From a virus (Duplodnaviria > Caudoviricetes): DNA of 26,840 nt. Below are positions 386-20,113 of the stretch, piece after piece. The notes below the pieces were generated by a model that saw only the letters and a list, made by a program, of their open reading frames with translations, had not been told where the DNA came from and made no database searches. Made by a program: the position numbers and the translations under genes. The DNA lies in the IMG/VR virus record IMGVR_UViG_3300011439_000041, positions 1-26,840 of that record; one strand, written 5' to 3'. Position 1 is the first letter of the stretch, and every line of letters begins with the position of its first letter.

Positions 386-788
386 CGCTCGCCCCTTCCC
401 CGGACACGGGCGCCGCAGTGGCCCCGCGGACCTCGGCCTTGCCCTGCTCGTCGAGCAGGGCGTACGCCGCCCTCACGGCGTCGATGTGTACCCGCCGGGC
501 AATGTCGGCACGGGCCGCGGCGTGGGCGGCGACCCGGGCCCGGTCGACCTTGAGCAGGTCGTCGGCCGTGCCGAGTGTCGCACGGGCCATCAGCGTGTGA
601 TGCGGCTCGCCAAACGTGATCGCGATCGTGGCCCCCGAATCGGGCAGGCCGGTCACCTCGGGCGCGATGCCCAGTGCCACCCGTGCCGCCTGCACTAGGG
701 CCTCCTGCTCGTCGACGCGCTCGGTGCCGAGCGGCCAGACGTGGGCGTCCGCGCCGATCTGGATGATGAGGTACGGGTCAGGACCCAT
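369..788 (-). CDS. Hypothetical protein (139 aa) between tail genes and lysin
   Basis: Overlaps both neighbours by short distances in the operon direction; no motif recognised. Confidence 0.6.
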   Translation of the reverse strand: MGPDPYLIIQIGADAHVWPLGTERVDEQEALVQAARVALGIAPEVTGLPDSGATIAITFGEPHHTLMARATLGTADDLLKVDRARVAAHAAARADIARRVHIDAVRAAYALLDEQGKAEVRGATAAPVSGEGASDGPLV

Positions 789-1332
789 CGAGGCGCTCCC
801 AAATTCCGCCCATGCGCGTGCCGGCCGTCGCGCCTACGCCGGCGAAGGTGTCCAGGTTGGCGCCGCGCTCGTGATACACGATCAGCTCCAGGTAGTCGCC
901 GGCGCTGAAATACCACCGGATCAGCGGCACGACGAACTCGCCGTCACTGGCGGCGGTGGCCGGATAGGCGAACTGCGAACCGGCGATGGCAGTGCCGTTG
1001 ATCTGCCACCAGCCTGCCCGGCGACCGGTGGCGTTCGCTGTCCATGCCACGATCCCGCCGAACGAATAGACACCCGGATACTGGCAGGTCCACCGGCTCG
1101 TGTTGACCGAGTTCGAGTGCCCGCCCGTGCCGGCCGGGTCGGTGTCGTAGTCCTCGGTGGTGAACGTCGCGACGGTACCGGTCGAGGTGGCGATGGTCTG
1201 CCCGACGGTCTGACGCAACTCGAAGAATGGCCGGCGCTGCAGGAAGATCAGGACGTCGCGCACGTATGTGTCCATCTCCGATGAGGTGGCGGGTCCGCCC
1301 TCGAAGTTGTGCGTCTGCGGAACATCCGGCAC
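778..1332 (-). CDS. Minor tail / receptor-binding-like protein (beta-rich, C1q/TNF-like pattern)
   Basis: Last tail gene. N-terminal MDTYVRDVLIFLQRRP and the NTSRWTCQYPGVY...YFSAGDYLEL pattern resemble actinophage distal tail proteins. Ends ...LDGS. Confidence 0.7.
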   Translation of the reverse strand: MPDVPQTHNFEGGPATSSEMDTYVRDVLIFLQRRPFFELRQTVGQTIATSTGTVATFTTEDYDTDPAGTGGHSNSVNTSRWTCQYPGVYSFGGIVAWTANATGRRAGWWQINGTAIAGSQFAYPATAASDGEFVVPLIRWYFSAGDYLELIVYHERGANLDTFAGVGATAGTRMGGIWERLDGS

Positions 1333-6658: not shown

Positions 6659-7102
6659 TCACCCCCGCCCCTTCAGTTTCGGTCTCTTCTTGCGTTGCGG
6701 GCGTGGCCGTTTCGTGACGTGGTGGATCATCGCGCCGCGTTGCGGATGCTTGGCGGCGTTGTGTTCAGACGCCTGCAGTGCGGCGCAGCGCAGGCACACG
6801 ATCGGCGGCTGCGGCAACCATCGCCAGTTGTAGTCGGTGGTTTCGCCGAGGTCGCCGTGGCAGCGCTGACACTCGCCGGCCTCACGCATGGCCAGGCCGA
6901 GCATCCACGCCCTGCTGTCGGCGTCCCATTCGGGCTCGCGCGTGACGATCGTGTAACCGGTGAGCGTGCCGTCCGGGTCGTAGTGGTCATGGCGTTCGTC
7001 GGGTTCCCAGCCGTCGAAGCGCCGCGGCGAGATGCCGAGTGTGCGGGCTGTCTCTACGCGGCGTCGGAGGTCGGCGTCTCCGAACGCGCCGGCCGCAAAG
7101 GG
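6659..7102 (-). CDS. Tail assembly chaperone extension (lambda T-like), reached by -1 frameshift
   Basis: The -1 frame is open from the slippery site at 7102 to the stop at 6659: PFAAGAFGDADLRRRVETARTLGISPRRFDGWEP...REPEWD...CQRC...CLRC. It contains track ORF 6659..6904. Confidence 0.8.
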   Translation of the reverse strand, partial: PFAAGAFGDADLRRRVETARTLGISPRRFDGWEPDERHDHYDPDGTLTGYTIVTREPEWDADSRAWMLGLAMREAGECQRCHGDLGETTDYNWRWLPQPPIVCLRCAALQASEHNAAKHPQRGAMIHHVTKRPRPQRKKRPKLKGRG

Positions 7103-7686
7103 ACGGCATCATCCCCGCGGCACGTGTTGAGCGAGGCCAGGAAGAGCACGTCACGCTGCCAGTCGGAAACGAACCGAAGCAGCCAGTCGATCTGGCCCTC
7201 CTCGACGACCTCGCCCGTCTCGGGGTCGAGGACCGGTGGCGCGAGCGGGTGTACCGCCTCGCTCTCGCCTCGGTAGCCGATGGCGCAGGCGCGGATCAGC
7301 GGATCGCGGCCAGCCTCGGTGTCGAACCGCCAGCGCTTGTCTGCCTCGTTACCCTCGCGGGCCGGATAGAGAGCACGGAAGGCGGTGTAGTCGATGCCGC
7401 TCAGACCCTCCATGACGACCTGCAGCGTCGACGCCTCGGCCGTCGCGTACAGCGCATCAAGCTCGGCGTCGATCGCGGCGATCCGGACGAATCCTGGCGG
7501 CCGCGAACTGAGCCGCCTGTTGCCCTTCGGCTTCTCGGCCTCGGCCTCAGCCGCGGCCTGAATCTCGTCGCGTTCGGCGAGCAACTCCTGGATCTGCTGG
7601 CGCAGATCGCCGTCGCAGACGATCGGAACCGTGCGCCGCGGACGGGTCGCACGGTTCCGGATCGCCTCAAATTCCTCCGGGGTCAT
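7054..7686 (-). CDS. Tail assembly chaperone (lambda G-like)
   Basis: Lies between tail tube and tape measure. The likely start is ATG 7686 (ATGA overlap with the tail tube stop), not 7710. Confidence 0.85.
   Translation of the reverse strand: MTPEEFEAIRNRATRPRRTVPIVCDGDLRQQIQELLAERDEIQAAAEAEAEKPKGNRRLSSRPPGFVRIAAIDAELDALYATAEASTLQVVMEGLSGIDYTAFRALYPAREGNEADKRWRFDTEAGRDPLIRACAIGYRGESEAVHPLAPPVLDPETGEVVEEGQIDWLLRFVSDWQRDVLFLASLNTCRGDDAVPLRPARSETPTSDAA
7096..7102 (-). other. Programmed -1 ribosomal frameshift heptamer C CCT TTG
   Basis: XXXYYYZ heptamer in the correct phase near the end of the chaperone ORF; the -1 frame joins the downstream ORF. Confidence 0.8.
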
Positions 7687-8195
7687 GAAGCGATGACCGG
7701 CACGCGCCACGACCGGCCCGGCGGGCGGAGGTAGGCGTTCTGCATGACCGTGAGCGGGGTGTTCGCGGTGGGCACGCCGTCCTGCTGGGCGCCGAGCGTC
7801 GACGGGTAGATGGTGACGATGTCACCAACGGCGAGCGCCTGCTCGAACGGGACGCCGCGACGGTCGACGAAGTAGCCGAGCGCGCCCTCGAGCAGGGTGA
7901 GCGCGGCCTCGTCCTCGTCGGGGTCGTCCGGGTTGCTGACGTAGATCAGCGGCATCGTGTACTTTTTGCGGCCGGGCTTCTCGAAGTTGTCGCGGGAGCA
8001 CAGCCGGTTGTCGGTGGCGGCGTCCTCGGCGAGGTTGGGCTGCCAGCCCTGGTCGGTGAGGTAGCAGGTGACGTCTAGGGCGGCGGGGTTCTGCAGCTCG
8101 TCGAGCTGCGGGGCGTCCGGGTCCGACAGTGCCGGCACCCAGAGCACCAGCACATTGCCGTCACTGATGACGGACTCAGGCATGGGCGAGGTCAA
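7683..8195 (-). CDS. Major tail (tube) protein
   Basis: 170 aa with DGNVLVLWVPAL, LDVTCYLT, DNRLCS and GYFVDRRG, typical of actinophage tail tube proteins. TTG start with GGAG upstream. Ends ...VIAS. Confidence 0.85.
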   Translation of the reverse strand: MTSPMPESVISDGNVLVLWVPALSDPDAPQLDELQNPAALDVTCYLTDQGWQPNLAEDAATDNRLCSRDNFEKPGRKKYTMPLIYVSNPDDPDEDEAALTLLEGALGYFVDRRGVPFEQALAVGDIVTIYPSTLGAQQDGVPTANTPLTVMQNAYLRPPGRSWRVPVIAS

Positions 8196-8425
8196 TGTGA
8201 TCTCCTGGTTCTCTGCTCGGTCGGCTGGCCGAGCCTGGTTTGTGGGACCGCCCGCCGACCGGCGAGGTCGACGAAACGCTTAGCTGGCCGCGCGGTGCGG
8301 GCGCGGCGACGGCGACCGGGAACCTCGCGGACGGCACCGATCGCCTCGAGGTGGTCGAGGCGATCGAGGGGTATGTCGTAGCGGTGGCCGGTAGTCAGAT
8401 CGGCCACCCAGCACCAGACGATCAC
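8192..8425 (-). CDS. Small hypothetical protein (77 aa)
   Basis: 4-nt overlaps with both flanking genes indicate translational coupling. Confidence 0.7.
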   Translation of the reverse strand: MIVWCWVADLTTGHRYDIPLDRLDHLEAIGAVREVPGRRRRARTARPAKRFVDLAGRRAVPQTRLGQPTEQRTRRSH

Positions 8426-8859
8426 GAGCCGTCGCGGCCCGCGTCGGACTCGAGCCGGTAGGTGTCGGTGATCGTGACCGTCGTCGCTCCGGTGGCTTCG
8501 TTGTCGCGCGGGTCGCTGCCGACCTCCGACCGGATCGGGTAGCAGACCCGGCCGTCGATGACCGGCTTGACGTCGAGCAGTGCCCCGCTGGCGAGGTCGC
8601 TGACGGCCCGGGCGGCGAGGTCGTCCTGCCCTACGCAGTGGCAGTAGATCCGCATTCGCATGCGGGTCGAGCGGTGGGCGAGCCGGCCGCCGAGCGACTT
8701 GTCGGCGACCATGTGCACCGACAGGTAGTTTGGCGGCGCATTGGCGGGTACGGTCGTGGGTCCGCCATCCTCGGCCGGGTAGACGGTCAGGTCCGGTGTC
8801 GCGTACAGCAGCGCCATCACGGCGTCGGCGTGGTCCTGAAAGTTGCCGTAGTCGCCCAT
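8422..8859 (-). CDS. Tail terminator / completion protein
   Basis: Size and position before the tail tube; ends ...RDGS. Confidence 0.7.
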   Translation of the reverse strand: MGDYGNFQDHADAVMALLYATPDLTVYPAEDGGPTTVPANAPPNYLSVHMVADKSLGGRLAHRSTRMRMRIYCHCVGQDDLAARAVSDLASGALLDVKPVIDGRVCYPIRSEVGSDPRDNEATGATTVTITDTYRLESDAGRDGS

Positions 8860-9242
8860 CAGTAGCGCTCCATCAGGCGGGCGGCGAGCGCCTCGGCCGC
8901 CGCGTAGAAACGCGGCGCCTCTTCGTCGAGGGCCGGCTCGTGGTGCGGGTGCGGCGGGTTGTTGGGCGAGCCGTACTCGAGCAGGTTGCCCAGCCCGCGC
9001 TGACGGCGACCCTGCACCGGGCCGACCTCGCCGATGATGTCGTCGGCCTCGCCGAGGATGTCGTAACTGATCGAAGCCGGGTAGTGCCTCGCATGGCCGC
9101 CGGACGGGGCTAGTTCGCGGGCGCGGGTCTTGATGTTCAGCGACCCCTTGGCGACGATCTGCCGGCCCTCGGTCGCGGCGTCGCCTGCGGCCGCCCGCAG
9201 AAGGTCGGCGAAGGCGGTCAGTTCCGAGACGTCGGCGGTCAT
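8859..9242 (-). CDS. HK97 gp10-like neck/tail completion protein
   Basis: YPASISYD, EVGP, LGNLLEYGS and HEPALDEE motifs; position in the head-tail block. Confidence 0.8.
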   Translation of the reverse strand: MTADVSELTAFADLLRAAAGDAATEGRQIVAKGSLNIKTRARELAPSGGHARHYPASISYDILGEADDIIGEVGPVQGRRQRGLGNLLEYGSPNNPPHPHHEPALDEEAPRFYAAAEALAARLMERY

Positions 9243-9640
9243 GAGGTGATCTCCTCTATGCCGATGCGCCGGGCGGTGGCCTCGCTCTTTGCCGACTGGT
9301 CGCGCACGCGCATCGCGACGCCGACGAGGTCGGGATCATTGACGGCCGAGTCGATGACGACCTCGTCGCCGGCCCGTACGCCACCGCTCGTCACGACGGG
9401 CAGTTGCAGGATGCGGTACCGGGCGAGTTGGGTCTGGTCGGGGGCGGGCGACGTCTCGCGGGCGAAGCCGAACAGTTCCTGTACCCGGCACGGCCCGCTG
9501 TAGATGGTCGTCGTCGTCTCGCTCGGTGCGCCCGTGCGTCGGTCGGTACTGGTGCCCGTGACGCGGGTGATCGTGCAAGCGTCGCTCATGCCCGCCTCGG
9601 CGGCGGCGCGGCCCAGCGCGAGTACCGACTCGCGGCTCAC
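9239..9640 (-). CDS. Head closure / stopper protein (DUF6093-like)
   Basis: GRAAAEAGMSDACTITR, IYSGPCRVQ, LQLPV and TARR pattern; ends ...EITS. Confidence 0.8.
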   Translation of the reverse strand: MSRESVLALGRAAAEAGMSDACTITRVTGTSTDRRTGAPSETTTTIYSGPCRVQELFGFARETSPAPDQTQLARYRILQLPVVTSGGVRAGDEVVIDSAVNDPDLVGVAMRVRDQSAKSEATARRIGIEEITS

Positions 9641-10368
9641 GTAACCGCCACAGGTGCGGCCTCGGCGATGAGCGCCGCCATGGTGCGCGGCGACGACTTG
9701 GCGCCGCGGTAGCGACGGAAGAGCGCGAGCGAGGCGCTGCTACCGATGGTTCGCGACATCCGCTGCGGGGTGCCGTGATACATGTGCCACAGGTCGGCAG
9801 TGCCGCGCCACGGCCGGCCGGCGAGCAGATGCAGCGCGACCGCCCACGCCTCGTCTTCCTGGCCCCAGCCCTGAAAGCGTGGGTCGATCGGCACGCTCAG
9901 ATACGTCTCCCGCCTGAGCACGACGATCCCACCGCCGGGCACCCCGATGTAGGGCCGCTGCATGTAGGTGGTGGCGGTGCGCACCGTCGGCCACGCGCCG
10001 GACTCGATGGCCTCGGCGGTCGCGGACGGCGTCAGTCGCAGCACCCGCTCGTGCGGGATCGCCCAGCCGGCGCCGCCGATCGCGATGACGTCGACGGCCG
10101 CCCGCACTCCGTCGCACCAGACGTCGGCGTCGGCGACCACGACGATGTCGCGGCTCGCCCGCGCGATCCCGTCGGCGACCGCGGCGCCCTTGCACCATAG
10201 GCCGTCGTCGGCGCAGTTGCCCTCGACAACCTCATAGTCCGGGTACCGCTTCGCCCACAGCGACCGCAGATGATCCCACAGCGGCGCCCGTTGCGGCGGC
10301 GTCGCGCGGAACGGCACGACGACCGAGACGCCGGGCTGCGGCCTCGGCTCAGTCTTGCGCTTCGCCAT
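9637..10368 (-). CDS. Glycosyltransferase E (GT-A fold with GT7/galactosyltransferase-like C-terminal motif)
   Basis: Likely start ATG 10368 (MAKRKTEP). Motifs VSVVVPFR, DxD in VADADV, and DPRFQGWGQED. Confidence 0.85.
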   Translation of the reverse strand: MAKRKTEPRPQPGVSVVVPFRATPPQRAPLWDHLRSLWAKRYPDYEVVEGNCADDGLWCKGAAVADGIARASRDIVVVADADVWCDGVRAAVDVIAIGGAGWAIPHERVLRLTPSATAEAIESGAWPTVRTATTYMQRPYIGVPGGGIVVLRRETYLSVPIDPRFQGWGQEDEAWAVALHLLAGRPWRGTADLWHMYHGTPQRMSRTIGSSASLALFRRYRGAKSSPRTMAALIAEAAPVAVT

Positions 10369-11149
10369 CGTGGTTCTCCCATCGGCGGTACGGGGCGGGG
10401 TCACGCACGAGGCCGGCGTCGACCGGCGACAGATACCACCAGTGCTCACGGAAGATGTCGCCGAGCACGCCCTCGCCCCGTTGATCGACGAGCCGGCCGT
10501 ACGAGCGCCAGTGCGCGCCCTCGCTGTCGGGCAGATCGGTGGCACGGTAGGCCGCCGCACCGTTGACGCCCTTGCGGGTGAACTGGGCGGCCGAGCGGGC
10601 GGGGAAGTGTCGGATCTCGAGCGATGGAATGCCGACCCCGCCCGATGGCAGGTAGACGCCATGGTTGCCCTGCGCGATCACCGCCCCGGGCTCCCAGCGA
10701 AACGCCACTTTGGGTAGCGGCGCCGACGTCGCCTGCCGCCACACCAGCGACCGGAACGGGTCCGGGTCCGGCTCGTCGACGGCGGTCGCCAGGTGGTTGA
10801 AGAGGCGCGCGATCGCGATCGGCTCCGGCTGGCCGGGCAACACGTCCCGGATCCGGTGGGCCGAGTACCAGAGCTCGTCGGCGTCGAAGGGAACGATCCA
10901 CGTCGCGCCCGCGGCCGCGGCCCGGACGGCGAGCGCCGACATCTTCGCCGACTGGTAGTAGGCCGGGTCCGGGTCGTCCATCACGATCAGCGGCAGCTCG
11001 TCGACGAGATCCTCGAGTATGTCGCGGGTGCCGTCCGTCGAGCCGTTGTCGGCGACGAGGAGCCAGTCGACCTCGCCGGCCATGTGCCGCAGCGTGCCGG
11101 CGATGACGTCGGCCTCGTCCCGAACCATCGAGACGCCGACAACGCTCAC
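10349..11149 (-). CDS. Glycosyltransferase D (GT2-like, Glyco_tranf_2_4 type)
   Basis: MVRDEADVI, ADNGSTDGT, WIVPFDADELW, KVAF, QGNH and IRHFPARS. Confidence 0.9.
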   Translation of the reverse strand: MSVVGVSMVRDEADVIAGTLRHMAGEVDWLLVADNGSTDGTRDILEDLVDELPLIVMDDPDPAYYQSAKMSALAVRAAAAGATWIVPFDADELWYSAHRIRDVLPGQPEPIAIARLFNHLATAVDEPDPDPFRSLVWRQATSAPLPKVAFRWEPGAVIAQGNHGVYLPSGGVGIPSLEIRHFPARSAAQFTRKGVNGAAAYRATDLPDSEGAHWRSYGRLVDQRGEGVLGDIFREHWWYLSPVDAGLVRDPAPYRRWENHDGEAQD

Positions 11150-11364
11150 AGGGCCGCCCGTACGAAACAGTCCTTTGCCTCGAGCAGCTTGCGTAGCCCG
11201 GCCGTCAACTCCGGCCCGTCCGGCAGGGCATCGACCATGTCGTGCGCGAGGTCGTGAACCAGCTTGCTCACCGCCTGCAGGTGCTCGGGTAGGTGGCCGT
11301 ACTCGAAGAATTCCAGAATGCTGTTTGTCGACGGATGACGGCCGACATGCACGCGCTGAGACAT
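11146..11364 (-). CDS. Small helical phage protein (72 aa), possibly Acb2/Tad1-like hairpin
   Basis: FFEYGHLPEHLQAVS...LPDGPELTAGLRKLLEAKDCFVRAAL. Own RBS (GGAAGGG) and GTGA overlap downstream. The gene is well supported; the function is tentative. Confidence 0.7.
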   Translation of the reverse strand: MSQRVHVGRHPSTNSILEFFEYGHLPEHLQAVSKLVHDLAHDMVDALPDGPELTAGLRKLLEAKDCFVRAAL

Positions 11365-11389
11365 GGTTGCCCTTCCTGCTGCTGAGTGG

Positions 11390-11944
11390 TCACTGACGTA
11401 CCCCCCGGATCGCTGTCTCGACGCCGTACTGCGTGTCTGTCTTGAGTCGGTCGACCTGCAGGGCGAAGCCGCCCGCCGCGAGCGGCTTGACGAGGTCGTT
11501 CAGCGCGAAGGCGATGTCGGGGGCGCCCGGAAAGTCGGCGTAAGCGATCTCGCGGGTGCGGCGCACGATCGGCGTAAAGATCGCTAGGAAGATCCGCTCA
11601 CGAGCCGAGGCGATCATGTTGTCGAGGATCGCCGGCCACTCGTAACTGTGCTCGAGCACGTGACGCATGAAGACGCCCGGCGCATCCGACCGGTACGTCG
11701 CGAGATCGGCGACGACGGACGCGAACCGGCTCGGCGACCCGTCTACCCCGCGATAGCGTTCGGGCGGGACGAAGGTGGAGAGGTAGCCGCGGCCGCATCC
11801 CCAGTCCTCGACTAGGGCGCACGACTCGAGCCATTCGGCCCCCATGGCGTAGGTTGGCGAGTCGCCATACGGCGTCGGCTTGACGCCCAGATTCCACGCT
11901 TCCCAACGCGCGTGAGGCGGCGCGGTTGCGACGTAGTCGGTCAT
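11390..11944 (-). CDS. Class I SAM-dependent methyltransferase
   Basis: Likely start ATG 11944 (TGATG overlap). Motif I VEDWGCGRG, YRGVD and FMRHVLEH. Confidence 0.85.
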   Translation of the reverse strand: MTDYVATAPPHARWEAWNLGVKPTPYGDSPTYAMGAEWLESCALVEDWGCGRGYLSTFVPPERYRGVDGSPSRFASVVADLATYRSDAPGVFMRHVLEHSYEWPAILDNMIASARERIFLAIFTPIVRRTREIAYADFPGAPDIAFALNDLVKPLAAGGFALQVDRLKTDTQYGVETAIRGVRQ

Positions 11945-12618
11945 CAGTAGCCCGTCCCTACCCGCTCGTTTCCGATGTGCTCGACCCAGACGCCCGAGTC
12001 GCGGGCACCCCAGAAGGCCGAGCGCAGCGCGGGATCGGAGGCGAATAGGTCGACGCCGAAGCGCCCCTCCGAGTTCGTGCCGGACGGCCAGCCGCGCTCG
12101 CACAGCGACCGGCGATAGAGCGACGGGTTCGTCGTCCAAAATCGCCGGTGCTCGAGCCAGACCGCCTCGCCGTCGCGTACCTCGACGTAGTCGTCAGGGT
12201 GCTGCTCGACGACGCCGCCCGCGGCGTGCTCGGCCTCGTTCCATGGCTGCCGGCGCAGGGCGACCTGCGTCAGGTGCGGCTGCTCGTCGAGCGTCCGAAT
12301 CATCGCGGCGAGGTCGATCGGCTGAGCGGGGGTGAAGTCGTCCTCGAGGTGCAGTACGTAGCGGGCTGCCGAGGTCCGGGCGAGTTGTCGCCAAGCGTGC
12401 TGGATAGCGCCGCCGAAGCCCGCGCGGGCGCGGCCTAGCGCGAGATTGCCGAACGCCGGATACTGCAGCGTCAGGGCGAACCGGTGCCCGTCGTCGCCGG
12501 TGTCGTCGTGAAACCAGTGCTCGGTGACCAGATCGTGCTCGAGCACCGGCGCCCACGCCGCCATCATCTTGTCGAGTACGGCGTCGCGGCCGTCGGTCAT
12601 CACGAGCGCTGCGATCAA
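11944..12618 (-). CDS. Glycosyltransferase C (GT-A fold)
   Basis: Likely TTG start at 12618 (TTGA overlap). Motifs FHDDTGD, VLHLEDDF, WTTNPSLYR and VEHIG. Confidence 0.75.
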   Translation of the reverse strand: MIAALVMTDGRDAVLDKMMAAWAPVLEHDLVTEHWFHDDTGDDGHRFALTLQYPAFGNLALGRARAGFGGAIQHAWRQLARTSAARYVLHLEDDFTPAQPIDLAAMIRTLDEQPHLTQVALRRQPWNEAEHAAGGVVEQHPDDYVEVRDGEAVWLEHRRFWTTNPSLYRRSLCERGWPSGTNSEGRFGVDLFASDPALRSAFWGARDSGVWVEHIGNERVGTGY

Positions 12619-13244
12619 GGTACGGGCACTCCGTTCGCTCGGGCGATGGCGCGGTGCGCCTCGAGGCGCACGGCACGATCGGGCGCCCGGTTGCGCGAGC
12701 GCTTGTAGACGTGCGCCCGGTAGACCGCGGCGGGGATCGCCTCGATGCTGGCGCCGGCGAGATGGCAGCGCAGCCAGAGATCCCAGTCTTCCGACCACTC
12801 AAAGTCGCGGAAGCCGCCCAGTTCTCGCGCCAGATCGGCCCGGATCATGCTGCCGATGACGAGCCAGTTGCCGTACAGCAGGCACTCGGCGACGCACTCG
12901 TGCGCGTGACTGCTGACCCTCGGCATCCGCGGCATGCTCGCTGACCGGGCCTCGACGTAGCGCACCGCCGGGGCGCGCACGTCGGCGGTGCCGGCCGCCA
13001 TCGCGTCGAGGTAGCCCGCCTCGAGCTCGTCGTCGGCGTCGAGGAAGACGGCCCACTCCGTCTCGACCTGCCACAGCGCCGCGTTGCGGGCCGCCATCGC
13101 CGACCCGGCGGCGAGGTGTACGTCGACCACTGCGGTCGCGCCGGCCGCGTACGCCGAAGCAAGCGCCCGAGCGCGCACCGGGTCGAGGTGTGGCCACTGC
13201 GGACCCTCATAGGTGGCGACGGCGATCGTCACGTCGAGGCCCAC
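12615..13244 (-). CDS. Glycosyltransferase B (GT2 family)
   Basis: VTIAVATY, ARNAAL, VFLDADDEL and GGFRDFEWSEDWDLWLR. Confidence 0.9.
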   Translation of the reverse strand: MGLDVTIAVATYEGPQWPHLDPVRARALASAYAAGATAVVDVHLAAGSAMAARNAALWQVETEWAVFLDADDELEAGYLDAMAAGTADVRAPAVRYVEARSASMPRMPRVSSHAHECVAECLLYGNWLVIGSMIRADLARELGGFRDFEWSEDWDLWLRCHLAGASIEAIPAAVYRAHVYKRSRNRAPDRAVRLEAHRAIARANGVPVP

Positions 13245-13888
13245 AGCGCCCGCCTCCGTAGGTAGATCTCGCGGCCGGTCTGCATGCGGCTCGTCTGTCC
13301 GGCATAGAGGTCGTCCATCGGCGCCTTACCGGACATCGGGTGCAGGTGCTCGACGATCGAGCGACGCGCGTGCGCGTAGGCGCCGCGGTGCTTCGCCGTC
13401 TCGACGGCCTCGTCGTCGCAGTACTCGTGCGGGTAGCCCTCGTGAAAGAACTTGCCCGCCTCGTCGATCGTGCCGCGGGTCTGCACGTAGTCGCGGGTGA
13501 CGAGCATGTGCGTCGCGTGCTCGCCGAGGATGGTGCGGCGGTTGCAGCGGTCGTTCGTGCCGACGACGCCGATACCCGGGCGCAGTCTGGCCAGCGCCAG
13601 ATCGAGCCAGCGCGGATGAAATCGCAGATCGTCGGCGCCGGTGAAGATCAGCGGGTGCGTCGTCTTGGCGATCGCGGCGTTGATCTTCCGCGCGTAGTCG
13701 CCGCGCAGTTCGCGCTCGACGAGCAGGTGATCGACGCCGGCCTGCCGGACGGCGGCGATCACGCCGTCATCCTGAGGAGTGAGCACAAAGAGCACGTCGG
13801 CGTCGCAAGTTTCGCGAATCGAGGCGAGCAGCGGGGCGACGCGGTGCGCCCGGCCGAGCATGGGCACGATGACGACGAGGTCGGGCAT
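13229..13888 (-). CDS. Glycosyltransferase A (GT2-like)
   Basis: Likely start ATG 13888 (TGATG overlap with the adaptor). Motifs LVVIVPMLGR, KINAA, FTGADDL, YCDDE and VEHLHP. Confidence 0.8.
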   Translation of the reverse strand: MPDLVVIVPMLGRAHRVAPLLASIRETCDADVLFVLTPQDDGVIAAVRQAGVDHLLVERELRGDYARKINAAIAKTTHPLIFTGADDLRFHPRWLDLALARLRPGIGVVGTNDRCNRRTILGEHATHMLVTRDYVQTRGTIDEAGKFFHEGYPHEYCDDEAVETAKHRGAYAHARRSIVEHLHPMSGKAPMDDLYAGQTSRMQTGREIYLRRRALWAST

Positions 13889-14493
13889 CAGCCGATCGGG
13901 GTGAGTGAGGCGCGGCAGCCGTACTTGCGCTCGAGCGCCTTGCGCAGGTAGGGCGCGCGCTCCATGGCGGCGAGGACGTCGGCCGCGGCGAACTGCACCC
14001 GATAGTCGTCGATCGACTCGGACATGATTCCGGTCGGGTTGGCGGCGGCGCTGCGCGCGATCGCGAAGGTCGCGGACCGCGCGAACTCGAGTTCTTGGTC
14101 GCCGACCGGGAGCCCGTGGGTGTAGACGACGACGACGTCGACGGGCTCGTGCACGTACGGCGACCACGGCAGGTAGCAGCCACGCACGGGCGCCCTGCGG
14201 CGCAGCTTCGCACCGTAGCGCTTGAAATCGGTGCCCTCGACGAGCGGGTCGCCCTCGTCGATGACGACCGAGTCGATCGCGCTGACCGGCCGCTGTGGCA
14301 GCTCGAGCCAGTTTGACCAGTAGCCCATCAGCAGCACCTCGTCGTCGACGACCTCGACGAGTCGCTGATTGCCCGCCGCGACCTGTACCTCGGCCGTGGC
14401 GAGCTCGAGATACAGGGTCGCGGCGTCCTCGTCGAGGTCGGTGCGCTGCATGAAGAGGGCGAGCTCGTCGGGCGTCGCGAGCATGTCAGCCAT
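13888..14493 (-). CDS. Head-to-tail adaptor
   Basis: Follows the capsid gene; LATPDELA, LELPQRPV, VVYTHG and NPTGIMSESIDDY pattern. Confidence 0.85.
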   Translation of the reverse strand: MADMLATPDELALFMQRTDLDEDAATLYLELATAEVQVAAGNQRLVEVVDDEVLLMGYWSNWLELPQRPVSAIDSVVIDEGDPLVEGTDFKRYGAKLRRRAPVRGCYLPWSPYVHEPVDVVVVYTHGLPVGDQELEFARSATFAIARSAAANPTGIMSESIDDYRVQFAAADVLAAMERAPYLRKALERKYGCRASLTPIG

Positions 14494-14535: not shown

Positions 14536-15516
14536 TCAGGAGCCGGTCGTGTTGAGGTCGTAGATCTTGCCGTGGTGCGACTCGACGCCGTACTCGAGGC
14601 CGATCTCGCCGTAGATCTGCTTGCGGACCGCGGCACCGGTGCGGGCGAGCTCCTCGACGAAGAGGAAGCCCTTGCCGGGGATCGGCATGAAGCGCGGCGC
14701 GCACTCGTCCATCGAGACGACGAAGATCCGATCCGTCGGCATCCAGCGGTCGAGCATGATGTTGCAGTTGCCGAAGTCGGTTTGGAAGGTCGTCAGCGCG
14801 ACGCCGCCGACGTTGCGGCTCGTCTCCTGGAAGCCCTTGCCGGTGATGAAAATCTCGGTCAGCTTGCGCTTCTGGCTGCCGTTGCAGATCAGCGTCGCGG
14901 TTTCGGACGACATGATGCCACCCTCGGTCCAGACCATCTGCATCAGGTCGAGGACCATGTCCTCGGTCAGCGGCGCGTTGTTGGCGTTGACCACGTTGGT
15001 CGTGATGACCGAGTCGAGGCCCGCCGACTTGCGCGCGCTCGCGTTGGTCGACGGCTCGACCATCGTGTTGGTGAGGAAACCGAGCTCGACGTCGCGGGCG
15101 ATCTGCGCGAGCGCGTAGCGGATCTGGCGGGCCTCCTCGTCGAGCACCGGGTTCGCGCCGGCGATGCCGGCGCCGTACGGGTGGCTGGATCCGGTGTCGC
15201 CGAACTGGCCGGTCGCGGCGAGCTTGGTGTACGAGATCTCGATGGCCTCCTGGTGTATCTCGACCACGTTGCGCACGTTCTGACGCGGGCGCGCCTCGGC
15301 GGTCGGGGCGTCCGCACCCTCCAGACGCTGACGGTCGGCCTCGGGGTCGCGCAGATCGGTGGTCTGCCACGTGAACAGGGTCGCGTCGGCGGGACGTCCG
15401 CCGGTCAGGCCGCCGATCGCCGAGAGAAACGGCGTGTCAGTGGGCGAGATCTCAAAGAGCGGGCCGACGTAGTTCGGCGAGTTGAACGTGGTGAGCTGGC
15501 CGGAAATGCCGGGCAT
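14536..15516 (-). CDS. Major capsid protein (DUF5309/SU10-like)
   Basis: 326 aa after the scaffold; SPTDTPFLSAIG, FTWQT, FQTDFG and LARTG...QIYGEIGLEYG. Ends ...NTTGS. Confidence 0.9.
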   Translation of the reverse strand: MPGISGQLTTFNSPNYVGPLFEISPTDTPFLSAIGGLTGGRPADATLFTWQTTDLRDPEADRQRLEGADAPTAEARPRQNVRNVVEIHQEAIEISYTKLAATGQFGDTGSSHPYGAGIAGANPVLDEEARQIRYALAQIARDVELGFLTNTMVEPSTNASARKSAGLDSVITTNVVNANNAPLTEDMVLDLMQMVWTEGGIMSSETATLICNGSQKRKLTEIFITGKGFQETSRNVGGVALTTFQTDFGNCNIMLDRWMPTDRIFVVSMDECAPRFMPIPGKGFLFVEELARTGAAVRKQIYGEIGLEYGVESHHGKIYDLNTTGS

Positions 15517-16326: not shown

Positions 16327-16554
16327 TCAGGCGGGAGTGGCGAGCGCGTACTCGGGGAACGGCTGCCCGTTGGACTCCCAGTGAATGCCGTTGTCGCCGG
16401 CGATCGGCTGCCGGTGGTCGAGCTCGTTCCCGTACACCTTGTCGGGGATGCCGCCAGGGAAGGCGGCGCAAAACGAATCCTCAGCGGGCGGGCTGACCGA
16501 GAACGCCGACCGGAAGTGCCGACAGGCCGAGCACTGTGCCTGCGCCTGCGTCAC
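16327..16554 (-). CDS. Small Cys-rich protein (75 aa), candidate immunity/partner of the MuF effector
   Basis: QCSACRHF...FCAAFPGGIP...DHRQPIAGDNGIHWE; lies downstream of the MuF-toxin fusion. Confidence 0.8.
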   Translation of the reverse strand: MTQAQAQCSACRHFRSAFSVSPPAEDSFCAAFPGGIPDKVYGNELDHRQPIAGDNGIHWESNGQPFPEYALATPA

Positions 16555-16720: not shown

Positions 16721-19700
16721 TTATGGCACCTTGGCGCGTTTCGGCGGCAGTACCTCGACGTCGAGAACGCGGTCGATGACCCTTCCGTATAGGTTGCCCT
16801 CGCCGTGGTCACGAATCACGCGGAACCGGTGCCCGTCAGCGATCATCAACTCGGCCTCGTACTCGTAGCCCGAGAGCTGGACGGCCCGCGTGCCCTTCGG
16901 GAATATGAAGCGCATCAGTACACGTTCGGCGAAAGTCTCCGCCTGGGTGCGATCGACTGAGGTGCTGAAGAAGGCCGGGTCACTCCACTCGGCGCCAGTC
17001 AGGTCAGTCGGCCACGTCGCGCGAGGCCCGAAAACGCTCTCGCCGGTCTTGACCCCGCGCCAAACTACGACGTCTTCTGCGAGCCGAGACTTGCGGATGG
17101 CGGCCCGCATGTTATCGATCCACTTGCGGACATAGGTTTTGTTATATTGATTGTCCCCGCGCAATAGGCCGTTGATTGGCACGAAACCATCGTCTCGGTA
17201 TTCCCGGAATGTTGCGATGATGTCGTTGCGCCTCGCGGGGTTTGGGAATGCAGGATCAAACCCTTCGGGGCCAGCGCCGAACTCATGGAGTCGCAGCGGT
17301 ATCTGGTCGAGGCCGTCCTGATTCGTCTTCGCGACACCGAGCTTTGTGTCGTATGTGGTCCGTGCGCGCTGAATGCCCGCCGACACTTTCGGCTGAGCGA
17401 ACTCGCGCTTAAGCTCGGCGATGATGTCGGCCCGCCGGGCGATGAGCGTCCCGGCTACCGACGTCGGCATCCCATTCTGCCGAACGATGGCCCGGATCTT
17501 CGCGGGCGTAATCGCCTTGACCCGAGCGACCGACGCGGTGAGTTCGGTCTTCGACATCCCCGCAAAGACAGGCGCCGCGTGATTGCTGCGCACCTTGTCG
17601 CGCAGCGTCTTCCACTCCGATACCGTCGAGGTGAACCCGCCGGCCTTCGGCAGTCCCACGCCGCCGCGATACAGCAGCGACCCGCCAACGTCGATGCGCA
17701 CCGGCTTGCCCGCGACGGTTACGACGTTGGAATACCCGTCGCCCATGACGTCCCAGTTCGCGAGCCAGGCATCGACAGCGAACCCGTCACGAAGCTTGAG
17801 CTTCCCGGCGGAGTTAGTAATGTCGAACGGCGTCGATCCCGGCGCTATCCGCGAGGCGAGCAGGGTGTCGCCAGTCAGGCCGCGGGCGCCTTTGCCGAGG
17901 ATGACCTCGGGCACGTCGATGCCGGCCGCGCGATAGAACGCCAGTGCCGTCAGTTCGTTGTGGGCGTGATCGGCGTCGAGTTGCTTGACGTACCACTCCG
18001 AACCGTCCGCGGCGCGGACGCGCCCGCCCGGGTTCGTGCCCGCGCTGGCTTTGCCCTGCCGAGTCATGACCGAGAAGTCGCCCGATCGGATCGCCGCGGC
18101 CGGGTCAATCTTGAGTGCGGCCTTCTTGGCAACCTTCCTGGCTGGCTTCGGGGGGCTCAGGGCTTTGACTAGATCTGCCTTGAGCATCTTGGAATAGCCT
18201 ACGATTCCGCGCTGCTTGGCAAGTGCCTTCAACTGGGCGACCGTCATCCTGGCTAGATCAAGCGCCTCAGCGGCCGAGGTAGCGGTGATGCCGACCCGTC
18301 GGCCGCCCTTGCGGTACTCGGCCTCGAGCAGATCGAAGATCTCGCGCGACAGGCGGGACGCCGCTGGGCCGTTGATCAGTACGTCGGTGAAGGCTTCCGC
18401 GACGAGCTCCCGGTGATTCTTCAGGCCGTAGCCTGAAACCTCACGCATGGTCAGGCCGGCCGCGCCCATGCCTGCGGCGAAGTCCTCGTGCGGGATCGGC
18501 TTGCCCGCCGCCCGCAACGCGTCGAGGCGCAGGTCGCGCTCGGTCGCACGACGGAAGATGAGCGCCGTCAGGTCGGTACGGATGGCCTCAGACAAAGTCG
18601 ACATGTCGAGGACGTGGCCGAACTCGTGCACCGCGACAGCGACCGGGCTCGCCGTGCCCCTGACGTGGAAACTCGCGGCGACGTCGTTGGCGAGCGAGTC
18701 AACGTACTTCTGACGGTTGCGCGTCCACCGGTCGTTGAACAGAACTCGCCCGCCAGACGGGACGTGCGGCGCGACCGCGGTGGCCGGCATGGCATGCCAG
18801 GTATCCGCGTGCGCATAGGCCGAATCAGCGCCACGCAGAACGCTCTTCAGGTTGACGTCGGGAAACCGCTCAATGCCCCGCAGCAGCCCCTCGGCATGCT
18901 CGCGCGCAGTGACTAAGGAGCCGTGAAACTCGACGTCGCTGAGTCTGCGACCAGTGATGCGCAAGAACTCGTCGCGGAATACGTCGCTCACCGAGTTCAG
19001 CGTTCGGGCCGCCTCGAGCGCCGGACGCACCGACACCGACACGGCGACGGCGGGGATGCCCGAGCCCGCCGGGCCTGCCGCGCTTGCGACGCGGACCCAG
19101 TTGCCGCCCTGCGGCGTGCCGATCGACGTCGCACCGGTGACTGGGAGCATCGGCGGTTCGAGTAGGTAGCCGTTGCGGTAAAGCAGGATCAGGGCCGCGT
19201 CGCGGTTGTTGTCGGCTAGGCGGTAGATCTCGTCGACGGACAGGCGTTGCGCCCGCTTGCCCTTCGCCGCGCCGAGCCGCATACCGGCGAGGCCGCGGCG
19301 CGTGGCGCCCTCGGTCGTCGTGCGACGCCCGCCCGCGACGTTCATGCCGCGGCGGGCGTTGACGATCTGATCGAGGTCGGCACCGTCGGCGATCGCCCTC
19401 CGGGCGGCGATGGTGAAGCCCGCCCGGGCGCGCTCGGCGTCGGTCATCCGGTCGTAGATCGTGCGCGGGTCCTGTACCAGCCGACCGGCCTTCGCGATGG
19501 CGGTCGGGAGGTGCACGCAGTCGCACATCGGATGCCGCGCGAACCCGTCGTTCCATTCGTACCTACGGCCCGCCAGCAGCAGGCAGCGTGCGCACGACTT
19601 GCCAACCGCGACCCGCACGTAGCCGGTGCCGCCGGGATGCGCGGTCAGGGCGACCTGATCGGCGAGGCGGCCGGCGTCGGCGACCTGAGTGCGCGCCAGC

Positions 19701-20113
19701 ATCTCGAGGTTGGCGCGGCCCATGCCCATCGCCCGGGCGACGTCGAGGCCGTCCGAGATGGCGAGCAGCGTGACGATCGCCGGATTCGACAGCAGCGACG
19801 CCAGACCACGCCCGTCGGACGCCTGCCCCGCGAAGCTTGCCGGGTCGATCGCCGAGACGGCCTCGTCGTCGAGGTCCTGCGCGTCGAGCGCCGCGGCCAC
19901 GTAGCGATCCGCCGGGCGGGCCGCCGCGAGCTGCGCGCCCGACACGAGCGCGGTCGCCTCGGGGATGAGCTTGGCCCACGACGCCGCGATGTCGTCCGGG
20001 TCGACCTCGGCCCACAGACCCGACATGGCCTGACCCGTCATCTCGACGAGCGCCTGCCGCTGGGCGTAGTGGGCGAGGGCGACGTTACGCGGCTGGGTTA
20101 CCGATGCCGGCAT
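16721..20113 (-). CDS. MuF-like minor head protein fused to zincin peptidase, HEH/Rho-N-like, kinase-like and VIP2-type ADP-ribosyltransferase domains
   Basis: Follows the portal. CARC...HPMCDC (MuF-like); HEFGH at aa 496-500 plus ELVAEAF; MTVAQLKALAKQRGIVGYSKMLKADLV; WYVK...HNE...DAWLANWD...N...IDVGGS; INGLLRG, VWRG, FSTS and E-A-E. Confidence 0.85.
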   Translation of the reverse strand: MPASVTQPRNVALAHYAQRQALVEMTGQAMSGLWAEVDPDDIAASWAKLIPEATALVSGAQLAAARPADRYVAAALDAQDLDDEAVSAIDPASFAGQASDGRGLASLLSNPAIVTLLAISDGLDVARAMGMGRANLEMLARTQVADAGRLADQVALTAHPGGTGYVRVAVGKSCARCLLLAGRRYEWNDGFARHPMCDCVHLPTAIAKAGRLVQDPRTIYDRMTDAERARAGFTIAARRAIADGADLDQIVNARRGMNVAGGRRTTTEGATRRGLAGMRLGAAKGKRAQRLSVDEIYRLADNNRDAALILLYRNGYLLEPPMLPVTGATSIGTPQGGNWVRVASAAGPAGSGIPAVAVSVSVRPALEAARTLNSVSDVFRDEFLRITGRRLSDVEFHGSLVTAREHAEGLLRGIERFPDVNLKSVLRGADSAYAHADTWHAMPATAVAPHVPSGGRVLFNDRWTRNRQKYVDSLANDVAASFHVRGTASPVAVAVHEFGHVLDMSTLSEAIRTDLTALIFRRATERDLRLDALRAAGKPIPHEDFAAGMGAAGLTMREVSGYGLKNHRELVAEAFTDVLINGPAASRLSREIFDLLEAEYRKGGRRVGITATSAAEALDLARMTVAQLKALAKQRGIVGYSKMLKADLVKALSPPKPARKVAKKAALKIDPAAAIRSGDFSVMTRQGKASAGTNPGGRVRAADGSEWYVKQLDADHAHNELTALAFYRAAGIDVPEVILGKGARGLTGDTLLASRIAPGSTPFDITNSAGKLKLRDGFAVDAWLANWDVMGDGYSNVVTVAGKPVRIDVGGSLLYRGGVGLPKAGGFTSTVSEWKTLRDKVRSNHAAPVFAGMSKTELTASVARVKAITPAKIRAIVRQNGMPTSVAGTLIARRADIIAELKREFAQPKVSAGIQRARTTYDTKLGVAKTNQDGLDQIPLRLHEFGAGPEGFDPAFPNPARRNDIIATFREYRDDGFVPINGLLRGDNQYNKTYVRKWIDNMRAAIRKSRLAEDVVVWRGVKTGESVFGPRATWPTDLTGAEWSDPAFFSTSVDRTQAETFAERVLMRFIFPKGTRAVQLSGYEYEAELMIADGHRFRVIRDHGEGNLYGRVIDRVLDVEVLPPKRAKVP

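Follow-up and report, generated by a model that had tools for sequence, protein, structure and literature searches.

A conserved cassette of five glycosyltransferases in a phage late operon and its predicted link to C-terminal serines of virion proteins

Virion glycosylation has been demonstrated in a few mycobacteriophages, in which it is reported to lower antibody neutralization. For the phage Che8 (cluster F1), gp108-gp110 are reported to O-glycosylate the virion, after Freeman et al. 2023, and gp110 is termed essential for capsid glycosylation (PMC12363180). In Corndog (cluster O), an O-methyltransferase and three glycosyltransferases (gp35-gp38) lie within the structural operon, between the portal and the protease (PMC4351075, PMC11600133), and in both phages the capsid and the tail tube are reported to be glycosylated (PMC12363180, PMC11600133). 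The capsid and tube proteins terminate in KTGS and SDGS in Che8 and in LVGS and KGDS in Corndog. The glycan itself is said to have been located at the C terminus of the capsid and tail tube subunits by Freeman in 2023. Here, we describe a cassette of glycosyltransferase (GT) genes in a 26.8-kb virus record (IMGVR_UViG_3300011439_000041, Caudoviricetes, 26,840 nucleotides, hereafter the window), which is about 62% complete by tool estimate and comes from an uncultured tailed phage whose hosts are likely soil actinobacteria. From comparison with related loci, we consider it very probable that the enzymes of this cassette O-glycosylate the C-terminal serines of virion proteins, namely those of the capsid, the tail tube, and the tail terminator.

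The cassette compared with described glycosylation systems

The window carries on its minus strand the late operon of a siphophage, with genes for terminase, portal, a VG15/MuF-like head protein, scaffold, an SU10-type capsid, adaptor, neck proteins, tail tube, chaperone, and tape measure. The cassette occupies positions 9637-13888 of the same strand, where seven genes stand between the adaptor and the DUF6093 neck gene (cf. Table 1). A first-pass annotation, made from the letters alone, had recognized the five glycosyltransferases (GT1-GT5) and the methyltransferase (MT) of this insert, which is confirmed, and had missed a gene of 72 amino acids; it had also placed the insert correctly, though the name of head closure gene that it gave to the downstream neighbor holds by position only. 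The junctions from the adaptor to the neck gene measure -1, -16, -4, -1, +25, -4, -20, and -4 nucleotides, so that, recomputed from the gene coordinates, seven out of eight overlap, in agreement with what had been noted earlier, and a GT2 start at 13232 instead would turn the -16 junction into one of -4. The G+C content at third codon positions was 0.79-0.90 in the cassette genes versus 0.87-0.94 in the flanking structural genes, with a codon bias near that of the latter, and a scan for sigma-70 promoters and terminators revealed nothing above chance.

Family assignment, which the first-pass annotation had suggested, gave glycosyltransferase names from Pfam or PHROG to all five GTs and placed MT among class I methyltransferases by Atlas features and structure. 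The five GTs are not recent paralogues, because their best pairwise phmmer E-value was only 0.31. AlphaFold models of GT3 and GT1 (predicted local distance difference test scores of 94.5 and 96.8, respectively) matched GT-A folds, and the claim of five sequence-distinct GT-A enzymes accompanied by a class I methyltransferase was borne out; in both models the GT-A architecture is visible and no donor specificity is readable. The best structural matches of the GT3 model were GnT-I (Z 16.0, root-mean-square deviation 3.0, 186 aligned), B4GALNT1 (15.5), and POMGnT1 (15.1), tied within 1, and its predicted fold resembles that of the N-acetylhexosamine (HexNAc) transferases of CAZy families GT13 and GT12. 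The GT5 profile matched chains of b4GalT1 and b4GalT7 from CAZy family GT7 (beta-1,4-galactosyltransferases; E 3e-7 to 2e-6). Since identities of GT5 and GT3 with members of GT7, GT13, and GT12 are 12-18%, these likenesses speak for the fold and not for donor or acceptor specificity. The highest 19-residue hydropathy of the six enzymes was 0.78-1.47, and for this reason we regard them as devoid of membrane helices. The C-terminal residue of GT3 is Tyr in 46 of 47 distinct ends. GT1 has 795 relatives at E<=0.001, and one GT1 relative with 63% identity (P0038) occurs in Micromonospora pisi, a cultured strain.

The prediction of virion glycosylation, already put forward in the first-pass annotation, is supported by relatedness to the mycobacteriophage enzymes. 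GT5 and Che8 gp109 both belong to phrog_1721, GT5 is related to Corndog gp37 (phmmer E 2.5e-12), and its profile, from which the reference proteins had been excluded, aligned with gp109/gp37 over 217 columns (hhalign 99.45%). GT2 is distantly akin to the N-terminal GT domain of Che8 gp108 (hidden Markov model E 4.7e-10; both match phrog_14775). The GT3 profile gave weak matches to gp238 of the phage Myrna (E 1.2e-4) and to Corndog gp38 (E 3.6e-4), and neither Che8 nor Corndog has a counterpart of GT1 or GT4. The gene organization resembles that of Corndog in two respects: (i) methyltransferase and GT genes lie in tandem inside the structural operon and (ii) capsid and tube end in Ser. It differs in that Corndog has three GTs as opposed to five in the window, where the cassette lies between the adaptor and the neck, in that gp35 is of the TylF type and MT is not, and in that no gp36 relative is present in the window. 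In Che8, unlike in the window, the genes are found at the far end of the genome and not in the neck module, and they encode three GT domains and, in fusion with these, a methyltransferase of the TylF type. Fusions of GT5 to GT3 occur in three related loci (L283, L291, and L298) and echo the gp109-gp110 pair; L298 has only such a fusion and a methyltransferase, with Ser on both capsid and tube. A further likeness was found in phage GX15bay (Caudovirales, MK557849), which carries relatives of GT2, GT3, and GT4 in the same order (40-45% identity) upstream of the terminase, but has no match to GT1 or GT5, possesses further GTs and a different methyltransferase, and is a cluster known from annotation. 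Relative to Che8 and Corndog, the cassette differs in its five GTs of fixed order, in two families absent there, in its methyltransferase, in its association with five capsid families, and in a likely third target. In the literature searched, which largely leaves subscription journals outside its coverage, neither this cassette nor a rule on terminal Ser was described.

Conservation and spread of the cassette

Scanning with GT1 led to 82 stretches of viral DNA, 80 of them retained, and scans with GT3 and GT4 added five each. The GT3 profile also detected 17 loci in bacterial genomes, mostly actinobacterial ones (Parafrankia, Solirubrobacterales, Acidimicrobiaceae), and a prophage of Parafrankia soli NRRL B-16219 (L307), which has all of GT1-GT5 and a capsid that terminates in ..TAGS, provides a cultured carrier. 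Synteny, a survey of which the first-pass annotation had proposed, was analyzed in 69 GT1 loci, the window included, that were non-redundant and extended for at least 4.5 kb downstream. The exact order GT1-GT2-GT3-GT4-GT5, with or without a methyltransferase after GT3, recurred in 37 of them; seven more lacked GT5 only, and the remainder were variants. MT had been counted as a member of the cassette, and it is indeed present in the window, but between GT3 and GT4, 25 of the 37 full cassettes have no gene and 11 have a methyltransferase, drawn from several unrelated families, which makes MT accessory. The catalytic motifs are well retained (GT2 DADD in 36/37, GT4 DADE in 36/37, GT5 WGxED in 37/37, and GT3 ExDF in 36/37), and that of GT1 varies as [GA]AxD.

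The capsid genes beside these 37 cassettes belong to the P22-like (15), PF05065 (11), phrog_777 (4), PF25209 (2), and SU10 (2) families, none being seen in three cases. When mapped on the cassette tree, the capsid label changed 12 times against a minimum of 4 and a shuffled mean of 16.5, and the close sisters L027 and L055 have different capsid families. The cassette varies in position, following the capsid, the adaptor, or the stopper, or else preceding the capsid, and in some larger phages structural genes were not detected in its vicinity. Judged from these comparisons, it is a mobile module that keeps its gene order while passing between unrelated phage backbones. The arrangement is a common one and not an exception.

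Two kinds of variation adjoin the conserved core. Loci L035, L042, L046, and L067 and the L072-L093 group have added nucleotide-sugar dehydratases or epimerases, or a PIG-L-like deacetylase with further GT and methyltransferase genes after GT1. The 72-amino-acid gene is not part of the conserved cassette: it lies inside the cassette only in the window and in L049, adjoins GT5 in L102, and belongs to a very large actinobacterial and phage family (7648 relatives). Its Atlas feature score to the Acb2/Tad1 hairpin was 0.96, but PF24729 is assigned to only 12-18% of the cluster members, and no Acb2/Tad1 protein was matched in PDB or Pfam searches using either the protein or a 33-row alignment, so that a role as an Acb2/Tad1 nucleotide sponge is a lead that sequence searches left unconfirmed.

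The occurrence of several carriers as prophages in actinobacterial genomes bears on another explanation, namely that the cassette is expressed from the prophage and alters the host cell surface, leading to serotype conversion or superinfection exclusion. It would also accord with the frequency of GT2-type folds among enzymes of wall polymers and with an orphan GT3 copy in Parafrankia soli (L308:9995-10714), which has a transposase and an ABC transporter nearby and belongs to no visible phage module. However, a GtrA-type gene (PF04138), the partner whose absence had been noticed in the first-pass annotation, was present in none of 31 cassette-bearing records, the six enzymes lack a membrane helix, the cassette overlaps late structural genes on both sides, and the Ser signature described below would be left unexplained. 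We therefore regard an action on the host surface as very improbable.

C-terminal serines of virion proteins

Five proteins of the window end in Ser, namely the capsid, the tail tube, the terminator, the DUF6093 neck protein, and a minor tail protein (cf. Table 1); in the neck protein this residue is not conserved (one of four relatives). Among the full cassettes, Ser terminates the capsid in 30/34, the tube in 26/28, and the terminator in 16/24 cases, and carriers within the capsid family of the window end in a tail of 4-7 residues that finishes in GS. For comparison, control loci were chosen by their capsid and not by the cassette (67 of 67, the best 80 of 315, and the best 80 of 169; 227 loci in total), two of the queries being derived from cassette-bearing capsids, which raised the share of carriers. 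From these, 105 non-redundant loci with both capsid and tube were retained; the others, every low-GC member of the SU10 set among them, were duplicates or had no detected tube and were left out. In this capsid-selected sample, Ser was the last residue of the tube in 29 of 34 loci that have a sugar transferase versus 3 of 71 that have none (Fisher p 2e-17), of the capsid in 31/34 versus 17/71, and of both proteins together in 28/34 versus 3/71, the transferase-negative loci containing five unlabelled open reading frames (ORFs) of at least 150 amino acids between capsid and tube that were outside the transferase scan. For the terminator, the corresponding values were 11/29 and 3/41. No such shift was seen in the portal (1/25 vs 4/60) or in adaptors (2/34 vs 8/49), the background being 392/4070.

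Shared ancestry was addressed with independent pairs taken from capsid trees for which the last 12 residues had been omitted. On the tree of the P22-like capsids, the transferase label changed six times, and the three capsid families offered 5, 2, and 2 independent pairs for the tube, of which 4.7, 2.0, and 1.0 went in the predicted direction and none in the opposite one. Altogether, about 7.7 of the 9 pairs supported the prediction (pooled sign test p 0.008-0.016). The Ser tag also appears to be portable, as the same cassette accompanies capsids of five unrelated families.

In other phages, hydroxymethylated bases are substrates of GT-A enzymes, and the cassette might accordingly glycosylate the bases of phage DNA, a hypermodification against restriction, its position in the operon being incidental. 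In one record (G062), a TET/JBP gene does lie at a distance of about 9 kb from its cassette, and the incompleteness of the window record leaves room for such a gene. Nevertheless, a TET/JBP gene (PF12851) was present in only 1 of the 31 cassette-bearing records and a thymidylate-synthase-like gene (PF00303) in none, eight of these records being at least 90% complete, and neither was found in the window, in line with the first-pass annotation, which had seen no base-modifying gene. Furthermore, DNA glycosylation would leave unexplained why the Ser signature is confined to capsid, tube, and terminator, and we hold it to be just as improbable as a change of the host surface.

Several observations weigh against glycosylation of the terminal Ser by this cassette. 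The relation to the Che8 enzyme termed essential is a weak link (GT3 profile versus gp110, E 2.4e-6, hhalign 31.55%), and the two belong to different PHROGs, GT3 to phrog_3047 and gp110, which is GT25-like (PF01755), to phrog_854. Ser ends are also found with cassettes that have GT1 and lack GT3 (the L018 tube, L267, and L279). The capsids of L317, L319, and L321 end in L, A, and L despite a cassette, as does the L319 tube in I, those of L312 and L058 end in T and G, the tubes of the transferase-bearing L162-L164 and both L293 proteins end in A, and four tubes end in Thr. In Myrna, which is likewise reported as glycosylated, the major capsid protein ends in A, and in the larger phages L016, L065, L070, L079, L083, and L087 neither a capsid gene nor a tube gene was detected in the vicinity of the cassette. 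On the side of method, the pair test never reached p<0.05 in any single capsid family, the additional transferase profiles were seeded post hoc from Ser-ending loci and then applied to all loci, and the evidence is comparative throughout. Because of this seeding after inspection, we also used a measure that is independent of any transferase family, the distance from capsid to tube, whose median was 4460 bases when both proteins end in Ser (31 loci) versus 1779 when neither does (56 loci). A frameshift in long reads was considered as the cause of the L317 and L319 exceptions and rejected, as the capsid ends read cleanly; these are real exceptions.

Such full cassettes with non-Ser capsid ends (L317, L319, and L321) would fit a particle that is glycosylated mainly at internal Ser, Thr, or Asn residues, or on a decoration or fibre protein, with the terminal Ser as a minor or historical site. 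The same may be said of Myrna, whose sheath and tube are not Ser-ending either and whose Ser-ending protein is not the major capsid protein but gp98 (L347:15377-15922, ..GLAGGS), encoded just upstream of the major capsid gene. On the other hand, the terminal Ser tracks the transferase genes in three capsid families and is absent as a shift on portal and adaptor, so that we consider internal sites improbable, if slightly less so than a role in DNA or host-surface glycosylation, and retain the C-terminal Ser as the predicted acceptor.

Other transferases, the proposed pathway, and remaining features of the window

When whole records were scanned with the GT-A profiles alone, 5 out of 37 carried Ser at the end of both proteins and gave no match; four of them contain a GT-B gene, and the fifth (L094) a methyltransferase and a 319-amino-acid protein. 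Twelve Ser-ending loci examined for want of a GT-A match comprised four with a GT-B gene in the neck module, four with a Stealth-type gene, one with a fusion of a GT29-like domain and a cytidylyltransferase, one with a gp110-type gene elsewhere in the record, one with a methyltransferase and an unnamed protein, and one 13-kb fragment with nothing. A single GT-B gene (phrog_26352, annotated as of unknown function) is inserted in the neck module, between the capsid and the neck genes, in L242, L244, L248, L249, and L292, where capsid and tube end in Ser; these loci likely represent a one-enzyme version of the coat. Stealth-family genes (phrog_7999) occupy the same neck position in L243:7675-8397, L265:4043-4732, L302:1185-2102, and L305:5987-6874, and the ORFs of L302 and L305 have an extra C-terminal match to a head-tail connector (phrog_2322). 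In the neck module of L304 (2906-5052), a HAD hydrolase gene comes after the GT29-like fusion, and these genes possibly direct a coat of a cytidine monophosphate (CMP)-activated, sialic-acid-like sugar; the capsid and the terminator of this locus end in Ser, its tube does not. The two L094 genes (6759-8347) directly follow a Ser-ending capsid gene, and the 319-amino-acid protein, whose best match was Glyphos_transf (E 0.17), is a candidate for a new transferase family.

We propose the following course of events. The cassette would be co-expressed with the head and neck genes, as the gene overlaps suggest, and its soluble GT-A enzymes would act in the cytoplasm on nucleotide-sugars of the host; no gene for sugar synthesis is present in the window, while epimerases or dehydratases are encoded in some related cassettes. 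The first sugar would be linked to the terminal Ser by one of the enzymes, GT5, GT2, GT4, and GT1 would lengthen the chain or add branches to it, and the accessory MT may methylate a sugar, so that the finished particle would bear a short sugar chain on each copy of the capsid, tube, and terminator proteins. GT7 galactosyltransferases are chain extenders, and GT5 is predicted to be one as well. As the initiating enzyme we favor GT3, to which we give about an even chance, because (i) it is the sole member with any similarity to gp110 and gp38, gp110 being called essential in PMC12363180, and (ii) its model is closest to HexNAc transferases and it is fused to GT5 in L283, L291, and L298. GT1 is a somewhat weaker candidate for this step; in the loci that have GT1 and lack GT3 (L018, L267, and L279), GT1 or another enzyme apparently can start the chain.

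Table 1. Cassette genes and other features of the window discussed in the text
Feature	Position	Strand	Basis and remarks
Virion structural/minor tail protein	778-1332	-	End ..LDGS; possible further acceptor
Tail tube protein	7683-8183	-	End ..VPVIAS; predicted acceptor
Tail terminator/completion protein	8422-8859	-	End ..GRDGS; predicted additional acceptor
DUF6093 neck protein	9239-9640	-	End ..EITS; DUF6093 and phrog_13779, both of unknown function; head closure by position only
GT5, GT7-like, 243 amino acids	9637-10368	-	VVVPFR, DAD, GWGQED; phrog_1721 E 3.3e-14
GT4, GT-A/GT2-like, 266 amino acids	10349-11149	-	DADE; PF13704 E 5e-12
72-amino-acid passenger gene	11146-11364	-	phrog_5120/1761
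MT, class I S-adenosylmethionine-dependent methyltransferase, 184 amino acids	11390-11944	-	DWGCGRG and RHVLEH; Pfam weak (E 0.046); Atlas placement
GT3, GT-A, 224 amino acids	11944-12618	-	LEDDF; phrog_3047 E 1.5e-17; no Pfam match
GT2, GT-A/GT2-like, 209 amino acids	12615-13244	-	DADD; PF13632 E 2.3e-7; phrog_14775
GT1, first cassette gene, 219 amino acids	13229-13888	-	GADD; PF00535 E 8.8e-5 (just under cut-off); phrog_14945
Head-tail adaptor, upstream cassette boundary	13888-14493	-	phrog_442, E 2.3e-17
Major capsid protein (SU10 family)	14536-15516	-	End ..DLNTTGS; predicted acceptor

Three further features of the window lie outside the cassette. A slippery heptamer (C CCT TTG, 7102-7096, minus strand) is located near the end of the tail chaperone gene, and the -1 frame continues from it into an ORF ending at 6659, as in the usual frameshift of tail chaperones. 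In the 1130-amino-acid VG15/MuF-like head protein (16721-20113, minus strand), the head domain is fused to Rho_N and, at the C terminus, to an ADP-ribosyltransferase domain (PF03496, E 2.6e-13). A Cys-rich ORF of 75 amino acids (16327-16554) comes next; it also occurs in L018 and has no Pfam match.

A wider interpretation, which we put forward tentatively and as a whole think somewhat doubtful, is that the terminal Ser might serve as a glycosylation tag that is independent of the capsid family and widespread among actinobacterial tailed phages, and on which at least four unrelated chemistries would converge, namely the five-GT-A cassette, a single GT-B, Stealth-type sugar-phosphate transferases, and a GT29-like domain with a cytidylyltransferase. 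The five-GT cassette would then build a defined multi-sugar chain on capsid, tube, and terminator, with GT1 and GT4 as new families and an initiator that is not an orthologue of gp110, and in soil hosts the coat may act against bacterial sensing, proteases, or loss by adsorption, and not against antibodies.

The cassette would represent a larger, order-conserved version of the particle sugar coat than those of the mycobacteriophages, present in dozens of unrelated phages, with the tail terminator as a likely third target besides capsid and tube. A predictor of one letter, a tail tube ending in Ser, led to sugar-transferase genes that had gone unseen in 10 of the 12 cases on which it was tried. 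Small soluble enzymes that read a C-terminal residue are possible tools for site-specific protein glycosylation, and the question of why soil phages keep a sugar coat becomes testable.

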